From the NCBI GenBank assembly GCA_036381415.1, contig DASVCV010000002.1:20091-84090 (forward strand): a stretch of 64,000 bases of DNA, written 5' to 3'. This document shows, in pieces, positions 25,291 through 53,440 of the stretch. The notes beneath the pieces were generated by a model, which had not been told where the DNA came from, did no database searches, and saw nothing but the letters and a program-made list of their open reading frames with translations. How positions within the stretch are numbered: the stretch's first letter is position 1; every line of letters begins with the position of its first letter. This DNA is from Patescibacteria group bacterium. GTDB taxonomy: Bacteria > Patescibacteriota > Microgenomatia > UBA8517. The translations under genes and the position numbers were made by a program.

Positions 25291-26019
25291 TTAGAGAGCT
25301 AGTATTACTGCTCCTATTAGAAGGACTATACCTCCTGCAATTGCAAGCCAGGTTGGAGTTGATACTCCAGCTTGTGGAAGAGCAGGTGCAGGGGTTGCCA
25401 CTGTTGGTTTTGGTGTTGCAACTACAGTGGGAGTTGGGGTGGCAAGTGCGACAGGCGTAGGTGTTGGAGTTGCGCATACGCAAGTTGTGCTTGTAGTACA
25501 TGATGGGTTTCTACAAACACCTGTAGTTCCAGAAGTTATATAGCAGGTCATTCCAGACTGACAGTTTGCATCAGATCCGCAAGTTCCACCGCATGCATTG
25601 GGTACCCCTGGCGTTGCAGTAGGAGTTGGAGTTGCAGTCGGGGTTGGTGTTGCAGTTCCTGAGGGAGTAGGAGTTGGAGTTGCAGTTGCAGCAGTAATGG
25701 CAAAACTTGTTGTGCAGATACTTGAAGTGGCTGCACATGCACCATTTACGATGTTTTGTCCTGAAGGACAACAATAAACTGTTGAACCATTAGCTGGACT
25801 TATACAAGAAGTAGAGCCTGCAATGCTGGTTGCATTACAATTTAATCCTGCAGCACATTGTTCTGCTGCTCCAGGTTTACTGGTGGGTGCAGTTGGTGCA
25901 ACTGATTCTTGTCTTAACTGATATAGCCTTAAAGCAGTAAATACTGCAATTCCTGCAAGAATTACAGTTGCTCCTAGTATTAATATTGTTACTAAATTTT
26001 TCTTTACAAATGCTTGCAT
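25291..26019 (-). CDS. Cys-rich, Pro/Thr-linker-rich surface protein B2. N-terminal signal-anchor, C-terminal LPQAG sorting signal plus hydrophobic tail.
   Basis: N-terminus MQAFVKKNLVTILILGATVILAGIAVF. 22 Cys, (TPTP)n linkers, an 8-Cys module NACGGTCGSDANCQSGMTCYITSGTTGVCRNPSCTTSTTCVCA. C-terminus LPQAGVSTPTWLAIAGGIVLLIGAVILAL. Confidence 0.6.
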   Translation of the reverse strand: MQAFVKKNLVTILILGATVILAGIAVFTALRLYQLRQESVAPTAPTSKPGAAEQCAAGLNCNATSIAGSTSCISPANGSTVYCCPSGQNIVNGACAATSSICTTSFAITAATATPTPTPSGTATPTPTATPTPTATPGVPNACGGTCGSDANCQSGMTCYITSGTTGVCRNPSCTTSTTCVCATPTPTPVALATPTPTVVATPKPTVATPAPALPQAGVSTPTWLAIAGGIVLLIGAVILAL

Positions 26020-26023
26020 ATTA

Positions 26024-27520
26024 TTAGAACCATTGGTTTAGAACTTGATGATGTAATTGTCCTGAAACTGTGAAATTGGTGATATTTGTTGGTATTGTGT
26101 ATTCTTCATAGAAATCAGCACTGCTTGGACGCTTAGTGGCTACTTCAGGTTGCAAGGTTCCATTAATAGTGAATCTTGCTTTATCAAATACTCCAGAGGT
26201 TGTTGTACCTGTAAGTGTAAAGCGTATTTTATCTCCTGGTTTTAAAGCCGAAAGCTGAGTTGTGGTTAGAGGATTCCAGTTAGTGTCATAAATTTGTATT
26301 CCAGTGCATGTTGCGGTTGGAGTTGGACCACAGGCTTGTTGTACTTCAGCAGCGGTTGGGTTTGCTCCTGATGAGTTAAGAACATATGAGTTTCCTTGGT
26401 CACGAGCAACGCAGTTATTTGTTGTCCATCCAGTAGGAAGTGTGTCTGGGACGCAATATGTGGTGTTGTTTGTCCCTGTTCCTACTGTACAACTTGGTCC
26501 AACTATGTATCTACAAACTGAGCCTGTTTGACAAAGGCCAAGAGATGCACTGCATGGATTTCCACAGGCATTTAGGCTACTGCAGTCGCAGTTTCTTCCA
26601 GGAATGGTTTTTCCAATACAGCTTGCATTTTGACAGATCCCTGCAACGCATGTAACAGTTCCACCATTTCCTGCAGCAGCGCAGTCACTTGTTTGAGTAC
26701 ATGCCTGTCCACAGGTTGGTTTAGGAGTGGGAGTAGGTGCTGATCCACCTGCACAAGTTGAAGGATTCCAAACACATGCTCCTTGGGGATTTCTTTGACA
26801 TTCCGAGCCTCTTTCTCCTACACCTGCTTCAACACAAGAGCAGCTTCCGCAAGCTCCCCATCCTGGCTGGATTGTTGGAGCTGGGGCTGTTGAACTTGTT
26901 GGAGTAGGTGAAGGTGGGACATAACCGCTTGTGCTACATTGTCCAGATGTAGCTGCGGGACAACCAGACTGGCATCCACAAGAGCTGTTTTGGGATACAC
27001 AATTTACAGTTCCGTCAGAATTGTAGAAACAATTATCGCATTTGTTTGCATTGAATTTATCTCCACATCCAGCAAATCCTCCAGGAGTGTTGTTTGATGC
27101 TCCGCCACAGGCGTCAAGTCTAACACAAGGTCCGTAAGTGTTGTTTGCTTGGCATACTACTCCTGTTCCAGCTCCATTACATTCAATACAGGATTGTTCA
27201 CCTGGGTTAACACATGATGCTCCTGGTGCTGCGCCTCCACCAGCTGCCTTCTGTTTAAAAATTTGCTGTTGTTGAACTAGGAGTAGTCCTGCTCCAACTC
27301 CTACTACTAAGAGAACTAGTCCAAGAATGGTTGGAATGAGTGCCCTTCTTCTGGGTGACGGTGGGGCAAAGTCTGTTTGTGGTGGAGTTGTAATGTTAGT
27401 GTCAGCTGGTCCTCCTGCACCTGTTTCAGGAGGAGTTTCTGTTGGAAAAGTTGGATTTGTCCCTGGGTCACTTGGCGCGATTGTGTTGGTGGAATTTTGA
27501 GGGCTGGTATTATCTTGCAT
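26024..27520 (-). CDS. Large Cys-rich surface protein A2. N-terminal Pro/Thr-rich segment plus signal-anchor, about 45 Cys, and a conserved C-terminal beta-rich domain.
   Basis: PRRRALIPTILGLVLLVVGVGAGLLLV anchor. Many CxC / CxxC disulfide-type spacings. The C-terminal IYDTNWNPLTTTQLSALKPGDKIRFTLTGTTTSGVFDKARFTINGT domain is shared with the 28342..30033 ORF. Confidence 0.6.
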   Translation of the reverse strand: MQDNTSPQNSTNTIAPSDPGTNPTFPTETPPETGAGGPADTNITTPPQTDFAPPSPRRRALIPTILGLVLLVVGVGAGLLLVQQQQIFKQKAAGGGAAPGASCVNPGEQSCIECNGAGTGVVCQANNTYGPCVRLDACGGASNNTPGGFAGCGDKFNANKCDNCFYNSDGTVNCVSQNSSCGCQSGCPAATSGQCSTSGYVPPSPTPTSSTAPAPTIQPGWGACGSCSCVEAGVGERGSECQRNPQGACVWNPSTCAGGSAPTPTPKPTCGQACTQTSDCAAAGNGGTVTCVAGICQNASCIGKTIPGRNCDCSSLNACGNPCSASLGLCQTGSVCRYIVGPSCTVGTGTNNTTYCVPDTLPTGWTTNNCVARDQGNSYVLNSSGANPTAAEVQQACGPTPTATCTGIQIYDTNWNPLTTTQLSALKPGDKIRFTLTGTTTSGVFDKARFTINGTLQPEVATKRPSSADFYEEYTIPTNITNFTVSGQLHHQVLNQWF

Positions 27521-27597
27521 TTAATTTTTTATGAATATGAAGCTAGTCATTTCTAGCCCTATACCCATCATAGAAAGAGCTAGAGCTGGTGTCAAGT
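27521..27597 (-). pseudogene. Remnant copy of the 3' end (sorting-signal-encoding tail) of the 30045..31382 gene. It marks the junction of the tandem duplication.
   Basis: Translates to ...LTPALALSMMGIGLEMTSFIFIKN*, cf. ...DLTPTLALSMMGIGLVVTSFILWKKLEI* at the true gene end. About 70 nt of DNA are near-identical to 30069..30130. Confidence 0.55.
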
Positions 27598-27615
27598 AAA
27601 TTGTTTGTAAATTCT

Positions 27616-28332
27616 TTAGAGAGCAAGTATTACTGCTCCTATTAGAAGGACTATACCTCCTGCAATTGCAAGCCAGGTTGGAGTTGATACTCCAGCTTGG
27701 GGAAGAGCAGGTGCAGGGGTTGCAACTGTTGGTGTAGGAGTTGCAACTGCAATAGGTGTAGGAGTTGGGGTTGGTGTTGCACATACGCAAGTTGTGCTTG
27801 TAGTACATGATGGGTTTCTACATACTCCTGTAGTTCCAGAAGTTATATAACAGGTCATTCCAGATTGACAGTTTGCATCAGATCCGCAAGTTCCATTACA
27901 TGCATTTGGTGCTCCAGGTGTTGGAGTAGGAGTGGGTGTAGGAGTTGGAGTTGGTGTAGGTGTAGCTGTTGCACAAACACAGTTTGAGTTTGATGCACAG
28001 GATGGATTTACACAGATGTTGTTTCCAGATACTGTTTGGCAAGTTAGACCAGTTGGACAATTTGATTGACCACCTGGAGTAGTACAAGCTTCATAGCATT
28101 GAGGTACTGGTGTAGGAGTAGGAGTTGGTGTTTCAGCAGTAAGTGTAAAGGACAGTGCTTGGCAAGCAGGGTTTACTTGAGCACCTGGATTACTAGTAGG
28201 AGCAGCAGGAGAAACAGACTCTTGTCTTAACTGATATAGCCTTAAAGCAGTAAATACTGCAATTCCAGCAAGTATTACAGTTGCTCCTAGTATTAATATT
28301 GTTACTAAATTTTTCTTTACAAATGCTTGCAT
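27616..28332 (-). CDS. Cys-rich, Pro/Thr-linker-rich surface protein B1 (paralog of B2). Two copies of the 8-Cys module and an LPQAG sorting signal.
   Basis: N-terminal 40 aa and C-terminal about 95 aa are identical or near-identical to B2. The first domain is replaced by a second 8-Cys module (CYEACTTPGGQSNCPTGLTCQTVSGNNICVNPSCASNSNCVCA). Confidence 0.6.
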   Translation of the reverse strand: MQAFVKKNLVTILILGATVILAGIAVFTALRLYQLRQESVSPAAPTSNPGAQVNPACQALSFTLTAETPTPTPTPVPQCYEACTTPGGQSNCPTGLTCQTVSGNNICVNPSCASNSNCVCATATPTPTPTPTPTPTPTPGAPNACNGTCGSDANCQSGMTCYITSGTTGVCRNPSCTTSTTCVCATPTPTPTPIAVATPTPTVATPAPALPQAGVSTPTWLAIAGGIVLLIGAVILAL

Positions 28333-28341
28333 ATTATTTTT

Positions 28342-30033
28342 TTAATTCCATGTATTTAACGCTGCATGGTGAATTTGTGCTGTTACTGTGAAACTTGTTA
28401 CACCTACTGGAATTGTGTACTCATCATAGAACTCTTGAGTTGCTGCTGGTTTGGTTGTTGTTACTTCTGGTCTTAAGGTTCCATTAATAGTAAATCTTGC
28501 TTTATCAAATACTCCAGATGTGGTTGTTCCAGTTACAGTAAATCTAACCTTGTCTCCTGCTTTAAGAGCTGATAATTGAGTGGTTGTAAGCAGATTCCAG
28601 TTTGTGTCATATGCTTTTACAGCCTGACATTGTGCAGTGGAAGGAGCGGTTGATCCAGGAGGGTTGGTTGGTGTTGTTCCTCCACCAGTAGTTGGAGTAG
28701 TTGGTGCTTCAATGGTGCCAGCTGGTGCGGCGCAGGACTGGCGGTCGGCATCGTATGAACAAGATATGGTTCCATTGTTGCAGAAGCAGTCGTAATTGCT
28801 TGGTTGGTTGTAATGGTCACCGCAACCTGCAAATCCTCCACTGCCGACTGTGCGGCCATCATATACTCTACATGTGTTGCCAGTAGTTGGGGGAGTGCTC
28901 CCATTACAAGTGTGTGTTGTTTCGTTACAATCACCGCTTAAACAACTTGTGTCGTATATACAAGTTGCTCCGTCTGGCCTGTTGCCGATCTCACCGCAGC
29001 GGTCTGTACGGATACAATCCCATTGACCAAGAGCGTTACAGTATGCTTGTTGAGTTGGACCTGCGCCTCCTGCTGGTTCTCCGTTTGCACCACTACAGTC
29101 TCCGCAAGCTTTTCTGTCTCCTGTGGTACATACTCTTCCTGTAGCATTTGAATAACCTCCGCAGGCTATTAATGTACCAGCGTTGCCGTAGCAGACTTTC
29201 TGTCCGGATTTAACTGTTCCTGCAATACAGGTAATACAATGAAGTGGACTTGAGCAGTTTGCATCTGAGGTACAAGTATCGCCTTCCCCACCTGTTGTTG
29301 TGCCTCCTGGAGTTGTACCTCCGCCGCTGGTGGTTGCAGTTGGACAGCTTTCACCTGCTGGACAACATCTACCTAGATAGCTTCCATTAGATTGTTGACA
29401 ACCTGCACCTGGATATACATAAGTCCATCCTGTAGCTGGGCATTGTCCACGATCAGAACCACTTGATCCAGTACACCAAGCACCTGCAGGAGCCGTTGGT
29501 TGAGTTCCTCCACTACTTGGTTGAGAACACATGCCAAGAGTGTTGCTGCATCCAACTGCAGATCCTCCACCACCTGAACAGTTCCAGTTGTAGTTTCCAG
29601 GACATTCTCCTCTATTACCTACTCTACAATCTCCAGTACACCAGCCGCCTGCTCTTTGATTTAGAAGCTGTTGTCTTTGAGTAAGTGCTAATCCTGCTCC
29701 AACTCCTACTACTAAAAGAACTAATCCAAGAATTGTTGGAATGAGTGCCCTTCTTCTTGGTGAAGGAGGGGCAAAGTCTGTTTGTGGCGGGGTTGAAATT
29801 CCAGAATCAGGTGGAACTCCTCCTCCATTGCCTGTATCTTGTGGTGTTTCTGTTGGGAAGGTTGGACTTGTATCTGCTGGTTGAGTGGTAGTTGTGGTTG
29901 TTGTTTCTGTAACTGTTACAGGTGGTACAGATAATGGCTGGTCTGTAAGAGTTGGTGGAGTACTCGTACTTTGATCAGTAGGAAATGTAGGATTAGTAGA
30001 AGTATTTTGTTGATTTAGAGTACTATCTTGCAT
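28342..30033 (-). CDS. Large Cys-rich surface protein A1 (paralog of A2).
   Basis: Same N-terminal anchor (PRRRALIPTILGLVLLVVGVGAGLAL) and C-terminal domain as A2. A different Cys-rich central region of about 50 Cys, and a longer poly-Thr N-terminal segment. Confidence 0.6.
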   Translation of the reverse strand: MQDSTLNQQNTSTNPTFPTDQSTSTPPTLTDQPLSVPPVTVTETTTTTTTQPADTSPTFPTETPQDTGNGGGVPPDSGISTPPQTDFAPPSPRRRALIPTILGLVLLVVGVGAGLALTQRQQLLNQRAGGWCTGDCRVGNRGECPGNYNWNCSGGGGSAVGCSNTLGMCSQPSSGGTQPTAPAGAWCTGSSGSDRGQCPATGWTYVYPGAGCQQSNGSYLGRCCPAGESCPTATTSGGGTTPGGTTTGGEGDTCTSDANCSSPLHCITCIAGTVKSGQKVCYGNAGTLIACGGYSNATGRVCTTGDRKACGDCSGANGEPAGGAGPTQQAYCNALGQWDCIRTDRCGEIGNRPDGATCIYDTSCLSGDCNETTHTCNGSTPPTTGNTCRVYDGRTVGSGGFAGCGDHYNQPSNYDCFCNNGTISCSYDADRQSCAAPAGTIEAPTTPTTGGGTTPTNPPGSTAPSTAQCQAVKAYDTNWNLLTTTQLSALKAGDKVRFTVTGTTTSGVFDKARFTINGTLRPEVTTTKPAATQEFYDEYTIPVGVTSFTVTAQIHHAALNTWN

Positions 30034-35084: not shown

Positions 35085-35111
35085 TTAGCAGTCATGATAG
35101 TCTAGTGCCAA
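35085..35111 (+). promoter_or_regulatory. CIRCE-like operator (HrcA binding site) immediately upstream of hrcA.
   Basis: TTAGCAGTC-N9-TAGTGCCAA versus consensus TTAGCACTC-N9-GAGTGCTAA (3 mismatches). A TTGACA -35-like hexamer lies at 35075..35080. Confidence 0.5.
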
Positions 35112-36322: not shown

Positions 36323-36349
36323 TTGGCACTCGTAGTAGATTAGTGCTAA
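36323..36349 (+). promoter_or_regulatory. CIRCE element (HrcA operator).
   Basis: TTGGCACTC-GTAGTAGAT-TAGTGCTAA is a near-perfect 9-N9-9 inverted repeat matching the CIRCE consensus. It sits directly after the grpE stop. Confidence 0.7.
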
Positions 36350-43067: not shown

Positions 43068-43901
43068 ATGGACAAATCATTTAAAAGACTAGTAGATGCA
43101 GCTAAATCAGTATTGATCTTACTTCCAACCAACCCAGTTTTTGATCAAGTAGCTGCAGGATTGGCTCTTTACTTAGCATTAACTGACACCAAAGGAGTTA
43201 ATGTTGCATGCTCTTCTGACATGCTTGTTGAGTTTAATAGGTTAATTGGTGTTAATAAAATTAAAAAGGAATTAGGAAATAAAAACTTAACAATAACTTT
43301 GGCTGGATATAACCCAGATAATATTGAAAAGGTTTCATATGATTTGGAAGAAAATGGAGAAATGAAGCTTAATGTTATTACCAAAGCTGATGGAGTTCCC
43401 CCAACTGCAGATCAAGTTAAACTTGTATTTACTGGAATTGCAGCTGACTTAATAATTTTGATTGGAGGTCAGCAGGGAAGTGATTTTCCAGAGCTTTCAA
43501 ATAAAGATTTGGCTGACAAGAAAGTGGTTCATATTGGAACTAGTGAGGTTAGAGTTGAAGGAAGAGATACTATCTCTTTTGCAAGACCAGCATCAAGTGT
43601 TTCAGAATTAATGGGAAGTTTAATTAAAGAAAGCGGGTTTCCAGTTGATGCAGATGCTGCAACTAACTTAGTAATGGGAATTGAAGAAGGAAGCAGAAAC
43701 TTTACTTCAAAAGATACCACTGCAGATACATTTGCAATGATTGCAGATTTAATGAAATTGGGTGGAAAAAGAATTACAGAAGCACAAATTCCAGGAAGGA
43801 ATTTTCCACCTGGAGCAATACCAGGAGAAGTTCCTCAGTCAGGACAAGCAGCACCTCAATCTTGGATGGAACCAAAGATATATAAAGGTACTTCAGTCTA
43901 A
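43068..43901 (+). CDS. DHH/DHHA1-like (NrnA-like) protein with degenerate catalytic motifs.
   Basis: The architecture and spacing match NrnA (ILLPTNPVFDQV...IGGQQGSD...VVHIGTS...ATNLVMGIEEGSRNF). The H-x-N-P-D-G-D and DHH residues are replaced (PTNPVFDQ; HIG). Confidence 0.5.
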   Translation: MDKSFKRLVDAAKSVLILLPTNPVFDQVAAGLALYLALTDTKGVNVACSSDMLVEFNRLIGVNKIKKELGNKNLTITLAGYNPDNIEKVSYDLEENGEMKLNVITKADGVPPTADQVKLVFTGIAADLIILIGGQQGSDFPELSNKDLADKKVVHIGTSEVRVEGRDTISFARPASSVSELMGSLIKESGFPVDADAATNLVMGIEEGSRNFTSKDTTADTFAMIADLMKLGGKRITEAQIPGRNFPPGAIPGEVPQSGQAAPQSWMEPKIYKGTSV

Positions 43902-44570: not shown

Positions 44571-44837
44571 ATGGCACTACCAACAGACGAGAAGCAAAAG
44601 ATAATTAAGAAGTTTGCCAGAGAGAAAGGCGATACAGGATCTCCTGAAGTACAAATAGCCTTACTTTCTGCACAGATAGATAAATTAGTAGGTCATTTGA
44701 ATGAACATGCAAAAGATGTACATTCAAGACGCGGACTACTTTCAATGGTAGCTAAAAGAAGAAGACTTTTGAGTTATCTTCAAAAGCGAGATAAAGCTCG
44801 ACACGAAGCTCTAAAGAAAGAGCTTGGTTTAAAGTAA
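44571..44837 (+). CDS. rpsO: 30S ribosomal protein S15.
   Basis: [17 protein letters not shown]...[15 protein letters not shown]...RRRLLSYL matches the S15 signature. Confidence 0.9.
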
Positions 44838-44867: not shown

Positions 44868-47258
44868 ATGACAGAAGTTTCAAAAAGTATTGAGTTAGGC
44901 GGAAGAACACTTACACTTTCCACAGGAAAATTAGCACAACAGGCAAATGCAGCAGTAATGGCCAGATATGGTGACACAGTTGTTTTTGCAACTGTAGTTT
45001 CCTCAGCTCCAAAAGAAGATTTAGGGTATTTTCCTTTAACAGTTGATTATCAAGAGAGACTTTATGCAGGAGGAAGAATTAAAGGATCTAGGTGGGTTAA
45101 AAGAGAAGGAAGACCAACTGATGAAGAAATACTTGCTGCAAGATTAATTGACCGCTCAATTCGTCCTCTTTTCCCATCAACTTATAAAAACGAAGTACAG
45201 GTAATTGTTATGGTTTTGTCAGTGGACATTGAGAATGATCCATCAATTTTGGCAGCTGTAGCAACTTCAGCAGCACTTTCAATTTCATCCATACCTTGGA
45301 ATGGACCAGTTGCACCGGTAAAGGTAGGTCTTAAGGATGGAACTGCTTTTATTAATCCAGTTGAGTCTGAACTTAAATATTCTGATTTAGATTTAGTTGT
45401 AACTTCAACTGCTGAGTCAGTTGTGATGATTGAGGCAGGAGCAAAGGAAGTAACTGAAGAAGAAGTTGCAAAGGCAATTGATTTTGCTAAGGCAGAAGGA
45501 GGCAAAGTAATTGATTTAATTAATGACTTTAAGAAAGAGGTAGGAAAAGAAAAGCAAGTTGCTCCTAAAGAGAAGAAAAATCCAGAACTTGTAAAAAGAG
45601 TAAAGAAATTAGTTGGAACTAAATTAGAGAGTTTGGTAGGAGATATGGCACTTCATGAAGGTGGAGATGCAGGTATGGCAGCATTCCAGCAAGCAATAGT
45701 TGCTGACATGAGCCGCGAAGAGGCTGGAGAGGCACTTTCAATTTTAGAAGAATTAATTCATGAAAAAACCCGTGAGATAATTTTGGCTGGTGGAAGGCCA
45801 GATGGACGTAAGCATGATCAAATTAGAAATTTGTCTGCTGAAGTAGGAATACTTCCTAGAACACATGGATCAGCAATATTTAAGAGAGGACAAACACAAG
45901 CTCTTACTGTAACAACACTTGGTGCACTTTCCTTGGGGCAATTAATTGAAACTGCAGAAGGAGAAGAAACAAAAAGATATATACATCATTATTCTATGCC
46001 TCCTTATGCAACAGGAGAAACAGGAAGATTTGGAAATCCATCAAGACGTGAAATAGGACATGGAGCACTTGCTGAAAGGGCACTCTTGCCTGTTATCCCA
46101 TCTGAAGATAAATTCCCATATGCAATTAGAGTTGTATCAGAAGTAATGAGTTCTAATGGATCAACTTCAATGGCATCAACTTGCGGATCAACTCTTTCAT
46201 TGATGGATGCTGGAGTTCCACTAACATCACCTGTTGCTGGAATTGCAATGGGAGTTGTTATTGAAAATGACAAAAAATATGCAATCTTAACTGACATTGT
46301 TGGATTTGAAGATCATATGGGAGATATGGATTTCAAAGTTGCTGGAACTGAAAAAGGAATTACAGCATTACAGCTTGATGTAAAAACATTGAAGCTTACT
46401 CCAAAAATACTTTCTGAAGCACTTACACAGGCAAAAGAGGCAAGACTTGAAATTATGGAAGTTATTAAAGGAGCAATATCAAAACCTAGGGCACAGGTTT
46501 CCCAATATGCACCTAAAGTAGCAATGGTTAAAGTTGCAGTAGATCAAATTGGGGAAGTAATTGGGTCTGGTGGAAAGACAATTAAGAAGATAATTGCTGA
46601 CACTGGAGCTCAGGTTGAAATGCAAGATGATGGAACAGTAAATATTTCAGGAATCAGCCAGGAATCAATTGATAAAGCAGTTGAGATTGTTAAGAACCTA
46701 ACTAAGAAAGTACAAGCTGGAGAAATATATGATGGAACAGTTGCAAGAATCCAACCTTTTGGAGCATTCGTAGAAATACTTCCTGGAAAAGATGGAATGG
46801 TACATGTTTCTGATATGGGTCAAGAAGGACAGTATGTTAATACTCCAGAAGATGTTGTAAAAATTGGAGATAAAGTAAAAGTAAGAGTAAAGGAAGTAGA
46901 TGCAATGGGAAGAATTAATCTTTCTATGAGAATGGATCCATCTACTGATAAAAAGATAGAAAGAAGACCAAGTAGCGGAGGAGATAGAGGTGGAAGAGGA
47001 GGATTTGGTGGAGATAGAAGAGGTGGGTTTGGAGGAGACAGACGTGGTGGATTTAGTAGAGGTGGAGATAGAGGAGGATTTAGAGGAAGAGAAGGAGGAG
47101 ATAGAGGAGGATTTGGTGGAGATAGAGGTGGAGCAAGATCATCTGGACCACATTTTCCTACAAGTAGATTTGTATCAGGCGGCAGAGGTGGAGATAGAAG
47201 AGGTGGCGGACGAGGTGGAAACGACAGAGGCGGACGCGGGGGATTTAGAGGCGAGTAA
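44868..47258 (+). CDS. pnp: Polynucleotide phosphorylase (PNPase) with an unusually long C-terminal RGG/GDR-repeat tail.
   Basis: Two RNase PH domains, KH and S1 domains ([18 protein letters not shown]). The last ~100 aa are about 15 Gly/Arg repeats (G-G-D-R-G-G-F). Confidence 0.9.
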
Positions 47259-47280: not shown

Positions 47281-48318
47281 ATGGATTCTGCTCACAGCCA
47301 GATTGATGAACTTGTTAACAAAGTAAAAGGTGTAAGACTTCCTGAAGGATTGGCTGAAATAGTACTAACTAGATTAGAACAGCTTTCAAAGCTGACTAAT
47401 TCCCCTACTTTTTTACCTGAGTTTGACAGCATGAATAGATATGTAGATTGGATTGTGAATTTGCCTTGGGATAAAAAGACACAAGATATTTTAGATTTAG
47501 ATCACTCCAAGAAAGTTTTAGATAAAAACCATTTCGGTTTAAATGAAATTAAAGACAGACTTTTAGAATACATATCTGTACTTAAACTTAGAGGAAATAC
47601 TGCAGAGATTGCACGCGCCCCTATTCTTTGCTTTGTAGGGTTAGTTGGAACTGGAAAAACAACTATTGCGTCATCAATTGCAGAAGCACTTGGCAGGAAG
47701 TTTGCCCGCATTCCTTTTGGAGGAATGGGAGATCCACTTGATTTAAGAGGCCAGTCAAGACTGCATGCAGAAGCAGAGCCTGGAAAAATAATTAAAGCTT
47801 TAAAGGGAACTGGATCAAGAAATCCAGTAATTCTTCTTGATGAAATAGATAGGGTTACAGATCAGGGAAGAGCTTCTATTATGGGAGTATTAGTTGAACT
47901 ATTAGATCCAGAACAAAATCATGCCTTTGTTGATCACTATATTGATTATCCTTTTGATTTATCAGAAGTATTATTTATTGCAACTGCAAACAATACAACA
48001 AATATTGCTACAGCAGTATTAGATAGGTTGGAGCCAATTCAAATGCCTTCATATACTGATTTAGAAAAGATAACAATTGGAAAAACCTATGTATTGCCTA
48101 AGGCAGTTAAGACGGCTGGGATTCCTGATGGAGCACTTTCTTTTGATGAAGAAGTGTGGCCACAAGTTGTAAGACCTTTGGGATTTGATGCAGGAATTAG
48201 AACTTTAGAGAGGACTATTGATGGAATAGTGAGGAAAGTGGCAAGAGAAATAGTTGAAGGAAAATCACAATCTGTTAAAATCACTTCACAGAATGTAAAA
48301 CAATACATTCCTCAATAA
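47281..48318 (+). CDS. Lon-family AAA+ ATPase module without a protease (S16) domain.
   Basis: YVDWIVNLPWDK...DHFGLNEIKDRLLEY (Lon pre-AAA helix), PILCFVGLVGTGKTT (Walker A), ILLDEIDRV (Walker B), LLDPEQNHAF, VLDRLEP (sensor/Arg). The ORF ends at the end of the AAA+ alpha-subdomain. No Ser-Lys protease domain follows. Confidence 0.75.
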   Translation: MDSAHSQIDELVNKVKGVRLPEGLAEIVLTRLEQLSKLTNSPTFLPEFDSMNRYVDWIVNLPWDKKTQDILDLDHSKKVLDKNHFGLNEIKDRLLEYISVLKLRGNTAEIARAPILCFVGLVGTGKTTIASSIAEALGRKFARIPFGGMGDPLDLRGQSRLHAEAEPGKIIKALKGTGSRNPVILLDEIDRVTDQGRASIMGVLVELLDPEQNHAFVDHYIDYPFDLSEVLFIATANNTTNIATAVLDRLEPIQMPSYTDLEKITIGKTYVLPKAVKTAGIPDGALSFDEEVWPQVVRPLGFDAGIRTLERTIDGIVRKVAREIVEGKSQSVKITSQNVKQYIPQ

Positions 48319-48324
48319 ATTTAA

Positions 48325-48999
48325 ATGAGTGAAGCCCCAAAATTTTATACAGAAGAGACTTCTATTGATGATTTGTTGAAATCAGTGCCAGCTGACACAA
48401 AGGTTTTATCTTTGTGTGAGGGTCATACAAGTCAAGCAACAAAAAGAGAAGTTGCAGAGTGTATGGAAGAATTAGGAAGGTTAGGTTTTACACATTTAGC
48501 AATGGAAGCTTTTGGAATTGATGCACAGGAGGCATTGAATGAATACCAAGAAAGTTCAACGAATAAAGGTAGAAAGGGTTTACTTAAGTATTTAAAAAGA
48601 GGCTTGGGTGGATGGCTGACCAAAGGGCCTGAATTATATATGGGAATAGTTGATGCTGCTATTAAAAATGGAATAAAGGTAAGAGGAATTGCTTTGCCAC
48701 AAAAAGAAGAGAGTAAATTTTCTGGAGTTTTTGAGTTAAGAGATCTACTAGATAGAAAGGATATACATATGGCGGGAGCTGTAGCATCTATACTAAATGA
48801 GAATCCAAGCAATAGGGTTATTACTTTTACAGGGACTAATCACGTCATATATGGCAAATCAATGGGAGGGTACTTAAGAGAAAGTAAAATTGATACATTT
48901 AATGTTGTGTTTTTGGGTAAAGATTACCCAACTGAAGAATTGACTAAAAGAAAAGGAAATTTGTTATATGATTGTGTTATACAGTTATCTGAAAAATAA
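48325..48999 (+). CDS. Hypothetical protein (possible GExH-type ChaN/TraB/Tiki-like fold, low confidence).
   Basis: 224 aa. SLCEGHTSQ (a G-E-x-H-like motif near the N-terminus) and VITFTGTNHVIYG. Not a Lon protease domain. Confidence 0.4.
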   Translation: MSEAPKFYTEETSIDDLLKSVPADTKVLSLCEGHTSQATKREVAECMEELGRLGFTHLAMEAFGIDAQEALNEYQESSTNKGRKGLLKYLKRGLGGWLTKGPELYMGIVDAAIKNGIKVRGIALPQKEESKFSGVFELRDLLDRKDIHMAGAVASILNENPSNRVITFTGTNHVIYGKSMGGYLRESKIDTFNVVFLGKDYPTEELTKRKGNLLYDCVIQLSEK

Positions 49000-49002
49000 A
49001 AT

Positions 49003-49605
49003 ATGGATAAAAGAGAAAAGTTAAAGAAATTAAGAGAAGAGATGTTAGCTGATGAGAGCTTACCTCTAAGAAAGGGAGCAACTAATTTGGTTTTTGGAGA
49101 GGGAAATGCTGATGCCAAAATACTAGCAATTGGGGAAGGTCCTGGGTTCCATGAAGATAGATTAGGAAGGCCATTTGTAGGTAATGCAGGTAATCTACTT
49201 AACAAACTTCTTGCTACTATAAAATTAAATAGAGAAGATGTTTTTATAACCAACATGGTTTTTTATAGGCCTCCTAATAACCGTGATCCATTTCCTAATG
49301 AACTTAAAGCATTTGAAAAATATATGGATCAGATTATTGAAATAATTAGTCCCAAAGTAATTATTACTTTGGGAAGATTTTCCATGGGTAAGTTTTTACC
49401 AGATGTTAAAATTAGTTCTGTGCATGGGAGGACTTTTAAGCTAAACTTCAAGGGTAGAGGGATAACTGTTGTTCCAATGTATCATCCGGCAGCAGCATTA
49501 AGAAGGAATGATGTGATGGAGCAAATAAAAGCAGATTTCTTAAAATTGCCGACTATCTTAAAAGAGGCTACAAAACCTGAAATAAAACAGGAAGGACTAT
49601 TCTAA
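49003..49605 (+). CDS. Uracil-DNA glycosylase, family 4.
   Basis: LVFGEGNADAKILAIGEGPGFHEDRLGRPFVGNAGNLL matches family-4 UDG motif A (GEGPG...ED) and the PFVG.AG motif. C-terminal HPAA (motif B). Confidence 0.8.
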   Translation: MDKREKLKKLREEMLADESLPLRKGATNLVFGEGNADAKILAIGEGPGFHEDRLGRPFVGNAGNLLNKLLATIKLNREDVFITNMVFYRPPNNRDPFPNELKAFEKYMDQIIEIISPKVIITLGRFSMGKFLPDVKISSVHGRTFKLNFKGRGITVVPMYHPAAALRRNDVMEQIKADFLKLPTILKEATKPEIKQEGLF

Positions 49606-49620
49606 ATTATTTAAAAATAT

Positions 49621-51270
49621 ATGGGACTTAAATTTATTGCAATATCAGGAACTACTGGAGTGACACAAAATTGCTATGTCTATGAGTATGGAAATGACAT
49701 GATTGTTGTTGATTGTGGAGTAGGTTTTCCAGAACCTGAAATGTATGGAGTGGATTTAATTATTCCTGACTTTAGTTATATTATTCAAAACAAAAGCAAG
49801 TTAAAAGGGATTGTAATTTCTCATGGACATGAAGATCATCTAGGGGCACTCCCCTTTCTACTTAAAGAGGTAAATGTTCCGATTTATTCAACTGAATTGG
49901 TTGCTGGATTTATTGAGGATAAGTTTGAGGATCAGGGAATAAAAGCTCCTAAGGTAAATATCTTTAACCCAGAGAGGGATTCTGTAACTCTTGGAGTGTT
50001 TAAGATAACTCCATTTAGAGTTTCTCATTCAGTTCCTGATGGAGTTGGGTTTTGCATTGATACACCAGAAGGAAAAGTATTTCATGTACCTGATTATAAA
50101 TTTGATTGGACACCAGTTGATGGCAAGCCATTTGATGTAGCAAAAGCTGCAAGTTTGGCAAGTGAGGGAGCACTCATGCTTGCATCAGATGCATTAGGAT
50201 CAACAACTGCCGGATATACAGAAAGTGAGAAATCAATTGAGGGAAGAATTGAGATGATTGTAAGTAAAGCTACAAAACAAGTTTTCTTTACGACAATTTC
50301 TTCAAATATTTCTAGAATTCAGCAAGCAATTAATGTTGCTTCACGGTTAGGAAGAAAGGTTTCTATTATCGGCCGCTCAATTGATAGAAAGGCTGCAATT
50401 GCAAAAGAATTGGGGCTTCTTAAATATCCTGAAAATTTAGTAATTAATCCAAAGCAGGCAGGAAAGTTAGATCCTTCAAAGATTATGTACATAATATCTG
50501 GTTCATATGGACAGCCAGGAAGTGCTTTATATAGAACTGCACTTGGAGAACATGACTTTTTACAAATTGATAAAGAAGATATTGTAATATTTTCTTCAGA
50601 TCCAGCTCCTCCTGGGTCTAAAACAAATGTTGATTTTGTGGTTGACCATTTAATAGAAGCAGGGGCTGATGTTCATTATTATGAGATACAAGAAGATTTG
50701 CATGTTTCAGGACATGGATGCCAGGAAGATATAAAAATGCTATTTGCATTAATTAAACCAAAATACTTTATTCCAATTGGAGGAACAATTAGACACATGA
50801 GAGCTTTCAGTGAAATAGCACAGGATATGGGAGCATCTGCCAACCGTGTGTTTGAGCTAAGAGAAGGGGATGTTGTAGAGTTTGCTAATCAGAATGCAAA
50901 GAAGACTGGACATATTCAGGTTAAAAATGTGTTGGTGGATGGGCTTGGAATTGGGGATGTTGGAAACGTAGTATTACGGGATAGACATGTACTTGCTAAA
51001 GAGGGAGTTGTTATTGCAATACTTCATATTGACTCTGACAAACAGATAATAGTAGAAAACCCAGACCTGGTTAGCCGAGGTTTTGTGTTTGAAGGAAAGA
51101 ATTCAAGAATTCTGGAGGAGGCTTCAAAGCAGCTGAAGAATTTTTTGGATAGGAAAAGAAGGGTGGATTCAAAACTGGCAAGGGATGCAGCAGTAGACTT
51201 TTTGGAAAGGTTCTTTTTCAAGCAGATAGGAAGAAGACCAATGATACTTCCTGTGGTAGTTGAAGTGTAA
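49621..51270 (+). CDS. rnj: Ribonuclease J (metallo-beta-lactamase / beta-CASP RNase).
   Basis: VISHGHEDHLGALPFL (HxHxDH), beta-CASP motifs and a C-terminal domain. 549 aa. Confidence 0.9.
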   Translation: MGLKFIAISGTTGVTQNCYVYEYGNDMIVVDCGVGFPEPEMYGVDLIIPDFSYIIQNKSKLKGIVISHGHEDHLGALPFLLKEVNVPIYSTELVAGFIEDKFEDQGIKAPKVNIFNPERDSVTLGVFKITPFRVSHSVPDGVGFCIDTPEGKVFHVPDYKFDWTPVDGKPFDVAKAASLASEGALMLASDALGSTTAGYTESEKSIEGRIEMIVSKATKQVFFTTISSNISRIQQAINVASRLGRKVSIIGRSIDRKAAIAKELGLLKYPENLVINPKQAGKLDPSKIMYIISGSYGQPGSALYRTALGEHDFLQIDKEDIVIFSSDPAPPGSKTNVDFVVDHLIEAGADVHYYEIQEDLHVSGHGCQEDIKMLFALIKPKYFIPIGGTIRHMRAFSEIAQDMGASANRVFELREGDVVEFANQNAKKTGHIQVKNVLVDGLGIGDVGNVVLRDRHVLAKEGVVIAILHIDSDKQIIVENPDLVSRGFVFEGKNSRILEEASKQLKNFLDRKRRVDSKLARDAAVDFLERFFFKQIGRRPMILPVVVEV

Positions 51271-51322: not shown

Positions 51323-53440
51323 ATGAGTCAAAAGAATAAAAAAAGGATGAAGTCCAAGAAAGCCTTTAAGTTAAAACTTAAGAAGGAAACAATGCACTCC
51401 ATTTCTCAGGTAGTTTTCTTTGCATTGACTGCTCTTGTTATTATTTCATTCTCAAGAAGAGGTGAAATTCTTATTCAACTAAATGATTTTTTGATGACTT
51501 ACTTTTCTTGGACAACAATATTTTTGCCTTTCATTTTTCTTTCTTTTGGATTTTTGGTTTCTAAATTTAGAAATCCTCTGTCTTCTCCAAATGTTGTAGT
51601 TGGTGCACTCTTATTTTTTATTTCTCTAATGACTCTTTCAAGGGCAGGCATAGTTGGACAGGCAAGCTGGGAAGGATTATCAGGTCTTATTACAGGAGTG
51701 GGAGCATTTATACTTTTGTGTGGAACAATATTGGTGGGACTTATTATTTTATTTAACACATCTTTGGACCAAGTACTTGCTTTGGTTGGAGATGGACTTA
51801 AACAGTTAAGGTATTATATTTTAGGTGAGAAGAAATTTGAAAAAGGATTAACTGGACTTACACCTAAAAAAGAATTAAAAGTGGTTGGGGGAAGTATTAA
51901 TACTCCAGCTCCTAATTCTAGGAATGATAAGTCAGCAGTTTCTAAAGAACCTCTTGAATCAAAACTTGTAAGTAATGTTCCTGGAGAAAGCAAAGTTTGG
52001 AAGTATCCTCCTTTATCTATTTTGACCCACACTGAGGGAGGTCATGCAGATAGAGGAGACATTAAAGGAAATGCTCATATTATTGAGCAGACATTAGAGT
52101 CTTTTGGAATCACAGCAAGAGTTGTTGAGGTTAACCTTGGACCTGCTGTGACACAATATGCATTAGAAGTTGCACTTGGAACGAAGCTTTCTAAGATTAC
52201 GGCTTTGGAGAGGGATATGGCACGCGCTTTGGCTTCTCCAACAGGTCAAATTAGAATTGAAGCACCCATTCCTGGGAGAAGCTTGGTTGGAATTGAGTTA
52301 CCTAATAGAGCACCTGAGTTTGTTCCTCTAAAGAAAATGATGGAGTCAGAGATACTAACTTCCAGTAGTTCAAAGCTTTCAGTATCACTTGGATTTGATG
52401 TTACTGGAAAACCAGTTGTAGCTGATATTGGACGCATGCCGCATGTTTTAATTGCAGGGCAAACTGGAAGTGGAAAATCAGTTTGTATAAACACTTTTCT
52501 TTCTACGCTATTGTTTAGAGCATCCCCTTCTGAGGTTAAATTAATTTTGGTTGATCCAAAGAGAGTGGAATTAACTGGATATAACGGAATTCCACATTTG
52601 CTTGCTCCTGTAATAGTGGAGCCTGAGAAAGTTATTTCAGCATTAAGATGGGTAATGGCTGAAATGGACAGAAGATATAAATTGTTTGCTCAAGCTGGAG
52701 TAAGAAATATTGATGCATATAATGAGATGAGTGGGTTCCAAGCACTTCCTTTTATTATTCTATTTATTGATGAACTTGCTGATATTATGCTTTTCTCACC
52801 AGTTGAAGTTGAGGATGCAATAACCCGTATTGCTCAGATGTCTAGAGCTACTGGAATTCATATGGTACTTGCTACTCAGAGGCCTTCAGTTGATGTTATT
52901 ACGGGACTTATCAAAGCAAATATTCCTGCTAGAATTGCATTTGCGGTATCTTCTTTGGTGGACTCTAGAGTGATTTTAGATACTCCTGGAGCAGAGAAGT
53001 TATTAGGAAAAGGAGATATGCTTTATCTTCCTCCTGAACAGGCAAAGCCTATGAGAATTCAGGGAGCATATGTGTCTGATAAAGAGATAACAAGTCTTGT
53101 GACATTTTTGAAGAATCAGGGAGTTACTCCACAATATACTGATGAAGTTACAACTATGGCAAAAGCAGGAACAAATATGGTTCCTGGAGTTGAAGGGAAT
53201 TTGGATGATTTGTTTAAAGAGGCAGTTAAAATAGTCTGCCAATTTGATAAAGCATCCGCGTCACTTCTACAGAGACGTCTGTCTGTTGGATATGCAAGAG
53301 CTGCCAAAATTATTGACCAATTGGAGGCAGCACATGTAATTGGTCCAGGACAGGGAGCAAAGCCAAGAGAGGTTTTGATTCAGGATGCTGAAGCTTTTTT
53401 GTCTGCTGGCAAGAATGATGCTCCTCCCCTTTCTGGTTAA
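51323..53440 (+). CDS. ftsK: DNA translocase FtsK/SpoIIIE.
   Basis: N-terminal 4-5 TM, a linker, a motor domain with LIAGQTGSGKSVCINT (Walker A) and FIDELADI (Walker B), and a C-terminal gamma winged helix (LLQRRLSVGYARAAKIIDQLE). Confidence 0.9.
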   Translation: MSQKNKKRMKSKKAFKLKLKKETMHSISQVVFFALTALVIISFSRRGEILIQLNDFLMTYFSWTTIFLPFIFLSFGFLVSKFRNPLSSPNVVVGALLFFISLMTLSRAGIVGQASWEGLSGLITGVGAFILLCGTILVGLIILFNTSLDQVLALVGDGLKQLRYYILGEKKFEKGLTGLTPKKELKVVGGSINTPAPNSRNDKSAVSKEPLESKLVSNVPGESKVWKYPPLSILTHTEGGHADRGDIKGNAHIIEQTLESFGITARVVEVNLGPAVTQYALEVALGTKLSKITALERDMARALASPTGQIRIEAPIPGRSLVGIELPNRAPEFVPLKKMMESEILTSSSSKLSVSLGFDVTGKPVVADIGRMPHVLIAGQTGSGKSVCINTFLSTLLFRASPSEVKLILVDPKRVELTGYNGIPHLLAPVIVEPEKVISALRWVMAEMDRRYKLFAQAGVRNIDAYNEMSGFQALPFIILFIDELADIMLFSPVEVEDAITRIAQMSRATGIHMVLATQRPSVDVITGLIKANIPARIAFAVSSLVDSRVILDTPGAEKLLGKGDMLYLPPEQAKPMRIQGAYVSDKEITSLVTFLKNQGVTPQYTDEVTTMAKAGTNMVPGVEGNLDDLFKEAVKIVCQFDKASASLLQRRLSVGYARAAKIIDQLEAAHVIGPGQGAKPREVLIQDAEAFLSAGKNDAPPLSG

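Follow-up and report, generated by a model that had tools for sequence, protein, structure and literature searches.

Why would a bacterium keep the motor of the Lon protease and dispense with the protease itself? The question is raised by a gene at 47281-48318 (plus strand) of the window, by which we mean the whole 64,000-nucleotide stretch analyzed here (contig DASVCV010000002.1, positions 20,091 to 84,090, of the Patescibacteria group bacterium assembly GCA_036381415.1). A first-pass annotation made from the letters alone described it as a stand-alone Lon-type ATPase directly following pnp, with RNase J in its neighborhood, possibly an unfoldase or chaperone or else the remnant of a split Lon. 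The open reading frame (ORF) of 345 amino acids is present as described, and the stand-alone arrangement proved to be genuine and conserved. On balance, we favor the view that the gene represents a family of conserved stand-alone motors that have been repurposed, and that it is neither a broken nor a split protease. The gene and the parts of it on which the argument turns are the following.

47281-48318, plus strand: stand-alone Lon-derived AAA+ ATPase gene, 345 amino acids, with a helical bundle, an alpha/beta nucleotide-binding domain and a Lon-type lid
47281-47595, plus strand: N-terminal helical region, residues 1-105, five helices (from the AlphaFold2 secondary structure, the LonA alignment and PMC6722904)
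47638-47661, plus strand: Walker A, GLVGTGKT, residues 120-127
47746-47787, plus strand: remodeled pore loop 1, RGQSRLHAEAEPGK, residues 156-169
47830-47850, plus strand: Walker B, ILLDEID, residues 184-190, with D187 and E188 invariant
47989-48027, plus strand: sensor-1 Asn237 to the trans-acting arginine finger Arg249 (LDRLE), both invariant in 93/93 clade members
48157-48201, plus strand: clade-specific lid signature, W293..VRPLGFDAGIR307, whose last residue is sensor-2 Arg307

The product corresponds to one contiguous piece of a LonA protein. Pfam identifies AAA (PF00004) at residues 116-253 and Lon_lid (PF22667) at residues 278-330 and nothing else in the ORF, that is, neither LON_substr_bdg (PF02190) nor Lon_C (PF05362). 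The NCBIfam model of endopeptidase La, TIGR00763, matches with an E-value of 1e-100 over model positions 251-573 of 795 only, and both this model (338 bits, with a cut-off of 608) and NF008053 (246, with a cut-off of 891) score below their thresholds. A phmmer search of the PDB aligned residues 7-343 to Bacillus subtilis LonA (3M6A; E = 5e-80), with further matches to Thermus and Meiothermus LonA, human LONP1 and residues 244-579 of Escherichia coli Lon, the same range that is spanned when E. coli Lon is searched against the window by tblastn. Identity to the AAA+ module of E. coli Lon and other LonA proteins is 35-38% across the whole ORF. Residues 1-105 are the equivalent of the C-terminal part of the LonA HI(CC) domain and its three-helix bundle, and the LonA motifs YVDW..LPW and HFGL..K.R.LEY are kept there. 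At the other end, the C-terminus (...KQYIPQ) aligns with LonA ...YLG(V/P), just before the linker to the protease domain.

The predicted structure agrees with these boundaries. An AlphaFold2 (AF2) model computed from a 21-sequence family alignment (predicted local distance difference test 89.8, predicted template modeling score 0.84) has the AAA+ modules of LonA and LONP1 as its best structural matches in Foldseek (template modeling [TM] scores of 0.78-0.89). Because TMq/TMt are 0.87/0.88 in the comparison with 6N2I, a crystal fragment comprising residues 235-584 of E. coli Lon, we take the domain boundaries of the ATPase to be those of that fragment. The alignment with Lon from the helix before the AAA+ domain through the lid, drawn in the first-pass annotation from the letters alone, is recovered by phmmer, tblastn, Pfam and the AF2 model.

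Are the missing domains encoded elsewhere in the neighborhood? We built hidden Markov models from 71 Lon N-domains and 103 S16 domains and searched all six frames of the 64-kb window and of 88 related loci from ~80 species, for each of which ~20 kb around the homologue had been fetched (1.47 Mb in all). Neither an S16 domain nor a Lon N-domain was detected by profile in any frame of the window and the 88 loci, i.e., within ~10 kb of the ATPase gene, and the same profiles recognized E. coli lon, used as a positive control, with E-values of 1e-88 (S16) and 1e-97 (N-domain). Likewise, tblastn with the E. coli Lon N-domain (residues 1-245) and S16 domain gave no match in the window. The absence of the Lon N-domain from the ORF, noted at first sight, is therefore borne out by Pfam, tblastn and the profile search. 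A frameshift joining the ORF to an S16 domain, one of the two findings named as refuting the annotation, was not found in the six frames of the window, and none of the 88 loci has a separate S16 gene beside the ATPase gene or sharing an operon with it. The ORF ends at the lid, and the gene that follows it is, as had been proposed, unrelated and devoid of an S16 domain; it belongs to the ChaN/Tiki superfamily (PF04187). Some relatives carry N- or C-terminal extensions, which are of low complexity and Q/P- or S/N-rich. We considered whether those of the longer relatives P0172, P0164, P0140, P0136 and P0151 are degenerate S16 or N-domains and rejected this, as neither profile matches them. Also rejected was P0218 as an intermediate with AAA+ and S16 domains near the clade; it is an ordinary LonA that is split by frameshifts in a GC-rich, error-laden contig.

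The gene is widespread. A homologue search among 5.8 billion proteins returned, as the best 120, proteins that all have 344-351 amino acids, 97-100% query coverage and 72-96% identity; their named sources are Candidatus Woesebacteria or Patescibacteria, and their annotations range from "Lon protease" and "ATP-dependent Lon protease" to "AAA family ATPase" and "hypothetical." An exhaustive scan of 1.84 billion cluster representatives added more protease-less relatives at 41-60% identity, each with AAA and Lon_lid only. Sampling one genome per GTDB species turned up relatives in at least 422 genomes, from Microgenomatia-type members of the candidate phyla radiation (CPR), which are ultra-small bacteria. 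The best 80 of these comprise Woese-, Shapiro-, Gottesman-, Levy-, Davies-, Ames- and Roizmanbacteria and WWE3, and they include single metagenome-assembled genomes (MAGs) labeled Nomurabacteria and Saccharibacteria; members from Dojkabacteria were identified separately.

In a neighbor-joining tree of 249 Lon AAA+ modules (~330 columns), the smallest clade that includes all 81 locus sequences takes in just 12 other proteins, all of them protease-less, and 89 of 100 bootstrap trees keep it free of proteins bearing an S16 or N-domain. Clade members lie at a mean distance of 1.18 from LonA, compared with 0.72-0.73 within each group. The LonA proteins nearest to the clade are non-CPR (from Clostridiales and Gram-negative contexts) and all roughly equidistant. 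The window protein is a member of this clade by its length of ~345 amino acids ending at the lid, its motifs GL[VAQ]G.GKT, [DE]AEPG and W..RP[LV]G[FY]DAGIR, and its placement in the tree. Selection on the gene is strong: between the window and locus L001 (96% amino acid identity), the ratio of nonsynonymous to synonymous substitution rates (dN/dS) is 0.05 for the ATPase and ~0.07 for pnp, and the median identity to the window across loci is 55% for the ATPase, equal to that of PNPase, with 41% for IF2 and 39% for RNase J. Taken together, the sequences show that the domains were lost in a single event long ago and that the gene has been strongly constrained since. We consider it reasonably probable that the family is ancient, vertically inherited, of housekeeping grade and derived from LonA by loss of both the N-domain and the S16 domain.

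Taxonomy taken from MAG titles is often unreliable in this data set. The CPR-specific gene with its synteny occurs in many GTDB representative MAGs titled "uncultured Gammaproteobacteria," "Pseudomonadales" and "Candidatus Methanoperedens" (L009, L012, L013, L015, L016, L018, L050 and others), labels that are apparently wrong. Assembly CAZBWW01, a MAG labeled Saccharibacteria, has two copies of the ATPase gene (L063, in a groESL context, and L085, in a pnp/WWE3-type context), with 58% of sites different between them. We did not accept this pair as evidence of paralogy because it is indistinguishable from a mixed bin.

What has been conserved in the protein, and what has changed? The catalytic set K126/T127, D187/E188, N237, R249 and R307 is invariant in 93/93 clade members, which agrees with the intact Walker A, Walker B, sensor and arginine-finger residues of the first-pass annotation. 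LonA (TIGR00763; MEROPS S16A) has the same Walker A, Walker B, sensor-1, arginine-finger and sensor-2 residues in its AAA+ module. However, the clade has the Walker A motif GL[VAQ]G.GKT where LonA has GPPGVGKT, and at the position of the lid signature, W..RP[LV]G[FY]D in the clade, LonA has [LIV]..YTREAGVR. Within the clade, W293 is found in 92/93, R298-P299 in 91/93 and F/Y302 in 93/93 members, together with G301 and D303.

The most important change affects pore loop 1. In LonA from Meiothermus taiwanensis (MtaLonA), degradation depends on Tyr397 of this loop, which contacts the chain under translocation in a spiral-staircase arrangement (PMC8503904). Where LonA reads RGHRRTY[IV]GAMPG, the window reads RGQSRLHAEAEPG: His162 stands in for the LonA Tyr (E. 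coli Y398), Ala163 for Ile/Val, Glu164 for Gly and Glu166 for Met/Leu. Hence, the translocation motif Y398-I399-G400 of E. coli Lon is absent from the window protein, which has H162-A163-E164. The Tyr is present in 59/59 LonA sequences, whereas the same column in the 93 clade members contains F (21), H (18), S (12), Y (10), L (7), R (7), Q (6) and others, followed by Pro, Ala or Leu. Acidic residues are newly fixed in the loop, with E/D at +2 in 83/93 and E at +4 in 91/93 members, and His predominates at the Tyr position in the 120 closest (Woesebacteria) relatives. Because pore loop 1 is remodeled, we doubt that threading of the classical Lon type takes place, at any rate in the Woesebacteria subgroup. 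The ATPase chemistry appears to be conserved while the substrate-contacting pore is under a different constraint. The suggestion of an unfoldase needs qualification on this point; its stand-alone ATPase stands, but the remodeled pore loop 1 had gone unnoticed. An aromatic residue in pore loop 2 was tried as a second discriminator and abandoned without a conclusion, as the column is variable in LonA too. There is no shift in overall charge that would hint at nucleic-acid binding, with a median pI of 6.19 in both the clade and the LonA AAA+ modules.

Is the protein a known kind of Lon? Of the features of LonA it has the Lon-type AAA+ module and lacks the N-terminal substrate-binding domain, the S16 Ser-Lys protease domain and the pore-loop Tyr. 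In all of the described Lon subfamilies (A, B, C and BA), the P domain comes after an A domain (PMC9569914). With no P domain, the ATPase does not belong to LonB, LonC or LonBA either, the first of which has a membrane anchor in addition to the A-then-P order. What LonB, LonC and LonBA share with the new family is that all are Lon relatives with a loss or change in one of two activities. LonC, e.g., from Meiothermus taiwanensis, is evidence that a Lon-derived protein can serve as a chaperone (PMC13069640; PMC3391209). In LonC the protease domain has been retained and the ATPase activity lost; the family described here is the reverse. Some motors from protease families work without proteolysis, namely, yeast mitochondrial ClpX (Mcx1), which lacks ClpP, chloroplast FtsHi, and proteolytically inactive Lon as an assembly chaperone. 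By analogy, these may serve as a precedent for an AAA+ module kept for nondegradative remodeling; in those proteins, however, the pore loops are canonical and aromatic or a protease domain persists in inactive form, whereas the present ATPase has no protease domain and a remodeled pore loop.

We found in the literature no description of a protease-less Lon-derived family, nor of Lon in CPR bacteria, and NCBIfam, Pfam and PADLOC hold no model specific for the family. The CPR survey of Méheust et al. (2019) has one lumped "Lon" family from 911 CPR and 983 non-CPR genomes, in which the N+AAA+Lon_C architecture occurs in only 56% of members. Protease-less proteins that carry the varied names listed above and are tallied as Lon in gene-content surveys constitute a systematic annotation problem. 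Membership in a defense system was considered and rejected, as hits to the PADLOC defense models were weak, generic P-loop matches over fragments, with E-values of 4e-6 at best, and the surroundings of the gene are a housekeeping array. The cluster representatives also include Lon proteins with tandem AAA+ modules (P0121-P0138 and others), in which two or three Lon-type AAA+ modules precede one S16 domain, with no N-domain, in 889-1675 amino acids. At locus L097 (1434-10242), such a protein is encoded between a canonical LonA and a third paralogue with AAA+ and Lon_C. We know of no description of these tandem-AAA Lons.

Around the ATPase gene, the window contains the following genes.

44571-44837, plus strand: rpsO, context, upstream of pnp
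44868-47258, plus strand: pnp, whose product has a 110-amino-acid, RGG-rich, basic C-terminal tail; it ends 22 nucleotides before the ATPase start
48325-48999, plus strand: ChaN/Tiki-superfamily gene (PF04187, E = 1.8e-12, "EGH" motif), outside the conserved unit
49003-49605, plus strand: uracil-DNA glycosylase (UDG)-family gene, conserved downstream array
49621-51270, plus strand: RNase J gene, conserved downstream array
51323-53440, plus strand: FtsK gene, conserved downstream array

No terminator-like site lies between pnp and the ATPase gene in the window. Across relatives the array reads hrcA-grpE-dnaK-dnaJ-nusA-infB-(276-amino-acid unknown)-rpsO-pnp-LonAAA-(UDG)-RNase J-FtsK-RodZ-like, where LonAAA stands for the ATPase gene; hrcA-grpE-dnaK-dnaJ lies ~10 kb upstream of it. 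Of 65 evaluable loci, 53 have RNase J on the same strand no more than 4 kb downstream, with direct adjacency in 28, and of 63 loci, 42 have pnp no more than 4 kb upstream. Intergenic gaps are short, with medians of 36-54 nucleotides across loci. A divergent subfamily (P0167, P0305 and P0310; ~43% identity, 56% GC) keeps rpsO-pnp-(Zn-ribbon/DUF3352)-LonAAA-RNase J-FtsK, and because the pnp-LonAAA-RNase J arrangement is retained in so deeply divergent and GC-rich a subfamily, we regard it as ancient. Other settings occur. In 10 loci that form a coherent subclade (Roizmanbacteria and relatives), the ATPase gene is divergent from groES-groEL, with neither pnp nor RNase J nearby, eight loci have sugar-metabolism genes upstream instead of pnp, and WWE3 loci have a Zn-ribbon protein inserted upstream and a NUDIX gene downstream of the ATPase gene.

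How could such a motor function? Residues 235-584 of E. coli Lon form a stable unit, bind ADP and crystallize as an open helical hexamer (PMC6722904), which makes a protease-free Lon motor physically plausible; that unit is a proteolytic fragment, whereas the ATPase described here is a natural, selected gene product. A trans-acting arginine finger works only between the subunits of an oligomer, and its invariance in the clade implies that the protein is oligomeric. The reading that we think rather likely is that of an oligomeric, nonproteolytic, Lon-derived ATPase that remodels protein or ribonucleoprotein (RNP) clients. The protein would assemble as a Lon-like ring or spiral, and ATP hydrolysis would drive the remodeling of clients without degradation, as a chaperone-like or disassembly activity. 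Clients would be proteins or protein-RNA complexes, gripped probably via the acidic pore or the helical bundle and not by classical threading with a Tyr paddle. They would most likely be the co-encoded machinery, that is, PNPase and RNase J in most lineages and the products of nearby or adjacent chaperone operons in others. The ancestry in protein quality control and the recurrent closeness to dnaK and groESL operons suggest a chaperone-like remodeling activity, and the deep conservation of the pnp-ATPase-RNase J arrangement suggests clients in RNA turnover; a link of the ATPase to RNA metabolism would be compatible with the synteny.

Several points weigh against our proposal. About one-third of the clade keeps Phe or Tyr at the pore-loop position, so that threading is conceivable for the family as a whole. 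The pI is equal to that of LonA AAA+ modules, the S16 negative covers the ~20-kb neighborhoods, and a CIRCE operator is found neither between groES and the ATPase gene nor upstream of the latter. Housekeeping synteny in CPR bacteria need not equal functional coupling, and UDG and FtsK are encoded in the same array. Moreover, we infer the ATPase activity, the oligomeric state and the clients alike.

A specific version of this proposal, which we consider possible although not likely, is that the ATPase is an accessory factor of RNA decay and the ATP-consuming part of a minimal CPR degradosome, where it docks on PNPase and/or RNase J, remodels these enzymes or their RNP substrates and takes the role of a DEAD-box helicase. 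Degradosomes contain DEAD-box helicases such as RhlB, CshA and RhpA, the last with RNase J. Like the ATPase, these are encoded or assembled with PNPase or RNase J, so that a functional analogy might be drawn from synteny, but their fold and mechanism are entirely different. The frequencies and short gaps of the pnp-ATPase-RNase J arrangement and its retention in the ~43%-identical subfamily argue for such a role, as do the basic, motif-bearing tails of PNPase, alongside a pore loop of the ATPase that has become acidic, and the weakly NrnA/RecJ-like gene upstream of rpsO. In WWE3 loci, the NUDIX gene between the ATPase gene and RNase J points the same way. NUDIX RNA pyrophosphohydrolases prime RNase J-dependent decay in Bacillus, and by analogy this gene may be a further link to RNA decay. 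However, in 10 loci the nearby genes are groES-groEL instead of pnp and RNase J, conservation as a neighbor is just as high for UDG and FtsK, so that the array may be frozen housekeeping synteny, the ATPase has no nucleic-acid-binding signature and a pI no different from that of LonA, and the acidic pore speaks against threading of RNA itself. Should a functional link to PNPase and RNase J exist, the ATPase would be a degradosome component of a new type. A yet more detailed scenario, which must be called quite unlikely, is that a Lon ring without a protease would be the ATP-driven core of a hitherto unrecognized, helicase-independent CPR RNA-decay machine and would grip the basic, disordered, motif-bearing tails of PNPase and/or other RNA-binding proteins by its acidic pore, to load, recycle or strip proteins from RNA for PNPase and RNase J.

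The tails themselves deserve description. In PNPases encoded beside the ATPase gene (window, L001, L003, L006, L009-L013, L020-L034 and others), they are basic, disordered and 25-110 amino acids long; the RGG-rich tail in the window is encoded at 46929-47258. Short motifs are conserved in them, GPHFPTSRF in Woesebacteria and DHPL[AS]xQF[RK]RER (DHPLxxQFRRER) in the Levybacteria type, and the tail peptides that carry them read GPHFPTSRF and DHPLAQQFRRER. These could be docking motifs.

We judge it improbable that the ATPase is one part of a split Lon in which a separately encoded S16 subunit, and maybe an N-domain subunit, reconstitutes an ATP-dependent protease. Such an origin would agree with an ORF that stops exactly at the LonA boundary between the AAA+ and protease domains with its ATPase site intact, and with the aromatic pore-loop residue in ~1/3 of the clade; the search for S16 was confined to ~20-kb neighborhoods. 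Recent gene fissions normally leave adjacent genes. A split Lon predicts an S16 gene, as a rule adjacent in at least some lineages, together with a retained translocation loop and a short branch from LonA, none of which is seen, and it is therefore unlikely. In no frame within ~10 kb was an S16 or N-domain found at the 88 loci; pore loop 1, which is needed to feed the protease chamber (PMC8503904), has lost its invariant Tyr and gained acidic residues; the clade is monophyletic on a long branch (1.18 to LonA against 0.72-0.73 within groups); and the lid, which adjoins the protease in LonA, bears a new conserved signature. Hence, the idea of a remnant of a split Lon, the alternative offered in the first-pass annotation, finds no support in the uniform length, the monophyly, the occurrence in at least 422 species, the dN/dS of 0.05 and the lack of an S16 or N-domain near the 88 loci. 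The gene is no pseudogene, and its product is most likely not one half of a Lon protease divided between genes.

Less probable still is that the Lon-type ring docks on or controls another peptidase, of the FtsH, ClpP or HtrA type. AAA+ rings often pair with separate peptidases (ClpX/ClpP, HslU/HslV), a precedent that together with the intact ATPase site speaks for a partnership of this kind. Yet no peptidase gene is conserved as a neighbor in the 88 loci, the pore loop is remodeled, and the protein stops at the lid without a docking tail or loop. The sole candidate in the window is the ChaN/Tiki-like gene. Its superfamily includes metalloproteases, and we considered it as a Tiki-type replacement protease partner and ruled this out, as a gene of this kind between the ATPase and UDG genes occurs in 0/87 related loci. 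Because it is absent from 87/87 related loci, we regard it as a lineage-specific insertion. Sequence searches revealed no solved structural relative of its product. There is next to no chance that the gene is a pseudogene, a truncated gene call or an assembly artifact of a normal lon gene: the partial, below-cut-off match of the NCBIfam lon model fits this notion, but a product of 344-351 amino acids with 100% query coverage in hundreds of independent assemblies, a confident and complete AF2 model and the lack of S16 and N-domains in any frame nearby contradict it, and length uniformity, tree, dN/dS and conservation exclude it.

The repurposed stand-alone motor that we prefer means that a large and ancient bacterial lineage has retained only the motor of Lon, under housekeeping-level selection and with a rebuilt pore loop. 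The family is a natural experiment on what the Lon AAA+ ring does without proteolysis, and it suggests that proteostasis in CPR bacteria, and possibly RNA turnover, relies on a toolkit different from that of model bacteria.

Some observations concern the neighborhoods. The 10 groES-groEL loci are L043, L045, L046, L052, L058, L061, L063, L068, L077 and L080 (at ~9-11 kb in each), and in this context an RNaseH_like (PF04308) gene is often located downstream on the opposite strand. The NUDIX hydrolase gene lies between the ATPase gene and UDG/RNase J in the WWE3-type loci L073, L076, L083, L085 and L086.

The window has two CIRCE-like inverted repeats at 35085-35111 and 36323-36349, with 3 and 2 mismatches to TTAGCACTC-N9-GAGTGCTAA. 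They are situated at the start of the hrcA-grpE-dnaK-dnaJ cluster, one upstream of the hrcA-like gene and the other just downstream of grpE. Control of the ATPase gene by HrcA/CIRCE was rejected, as CIRCE-like sites occur near hrcA, dnaK and dnaJ but neither between groES and the ATPase gene nor upstream of the latter.

Between infB and rpsO, a conserved gene at 43068-43901 encodes 277 amino acids, occurs in 34 loci and has no Pfam match. Its product weakly matches NrnA (NCBIfam, E = 0.004) and a RecJ-like protein (PDB 8IOO, E = 0.5) and may be a divergent, perhaps inactive, DHH-family protein.

Farther upstream, 25291-30033 is a tandem duplication of a two-gene unit with a GC content of ~45%, compared with ~36% elsewhere. 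The duplicated membrane proteins, of 242 and 238 amino acids (25291-26019 and 27616-28332), have near-identical N-termini, and each of their genes is followed by one for a Thr/Pro-rich protein of ~500-560 amino acids.

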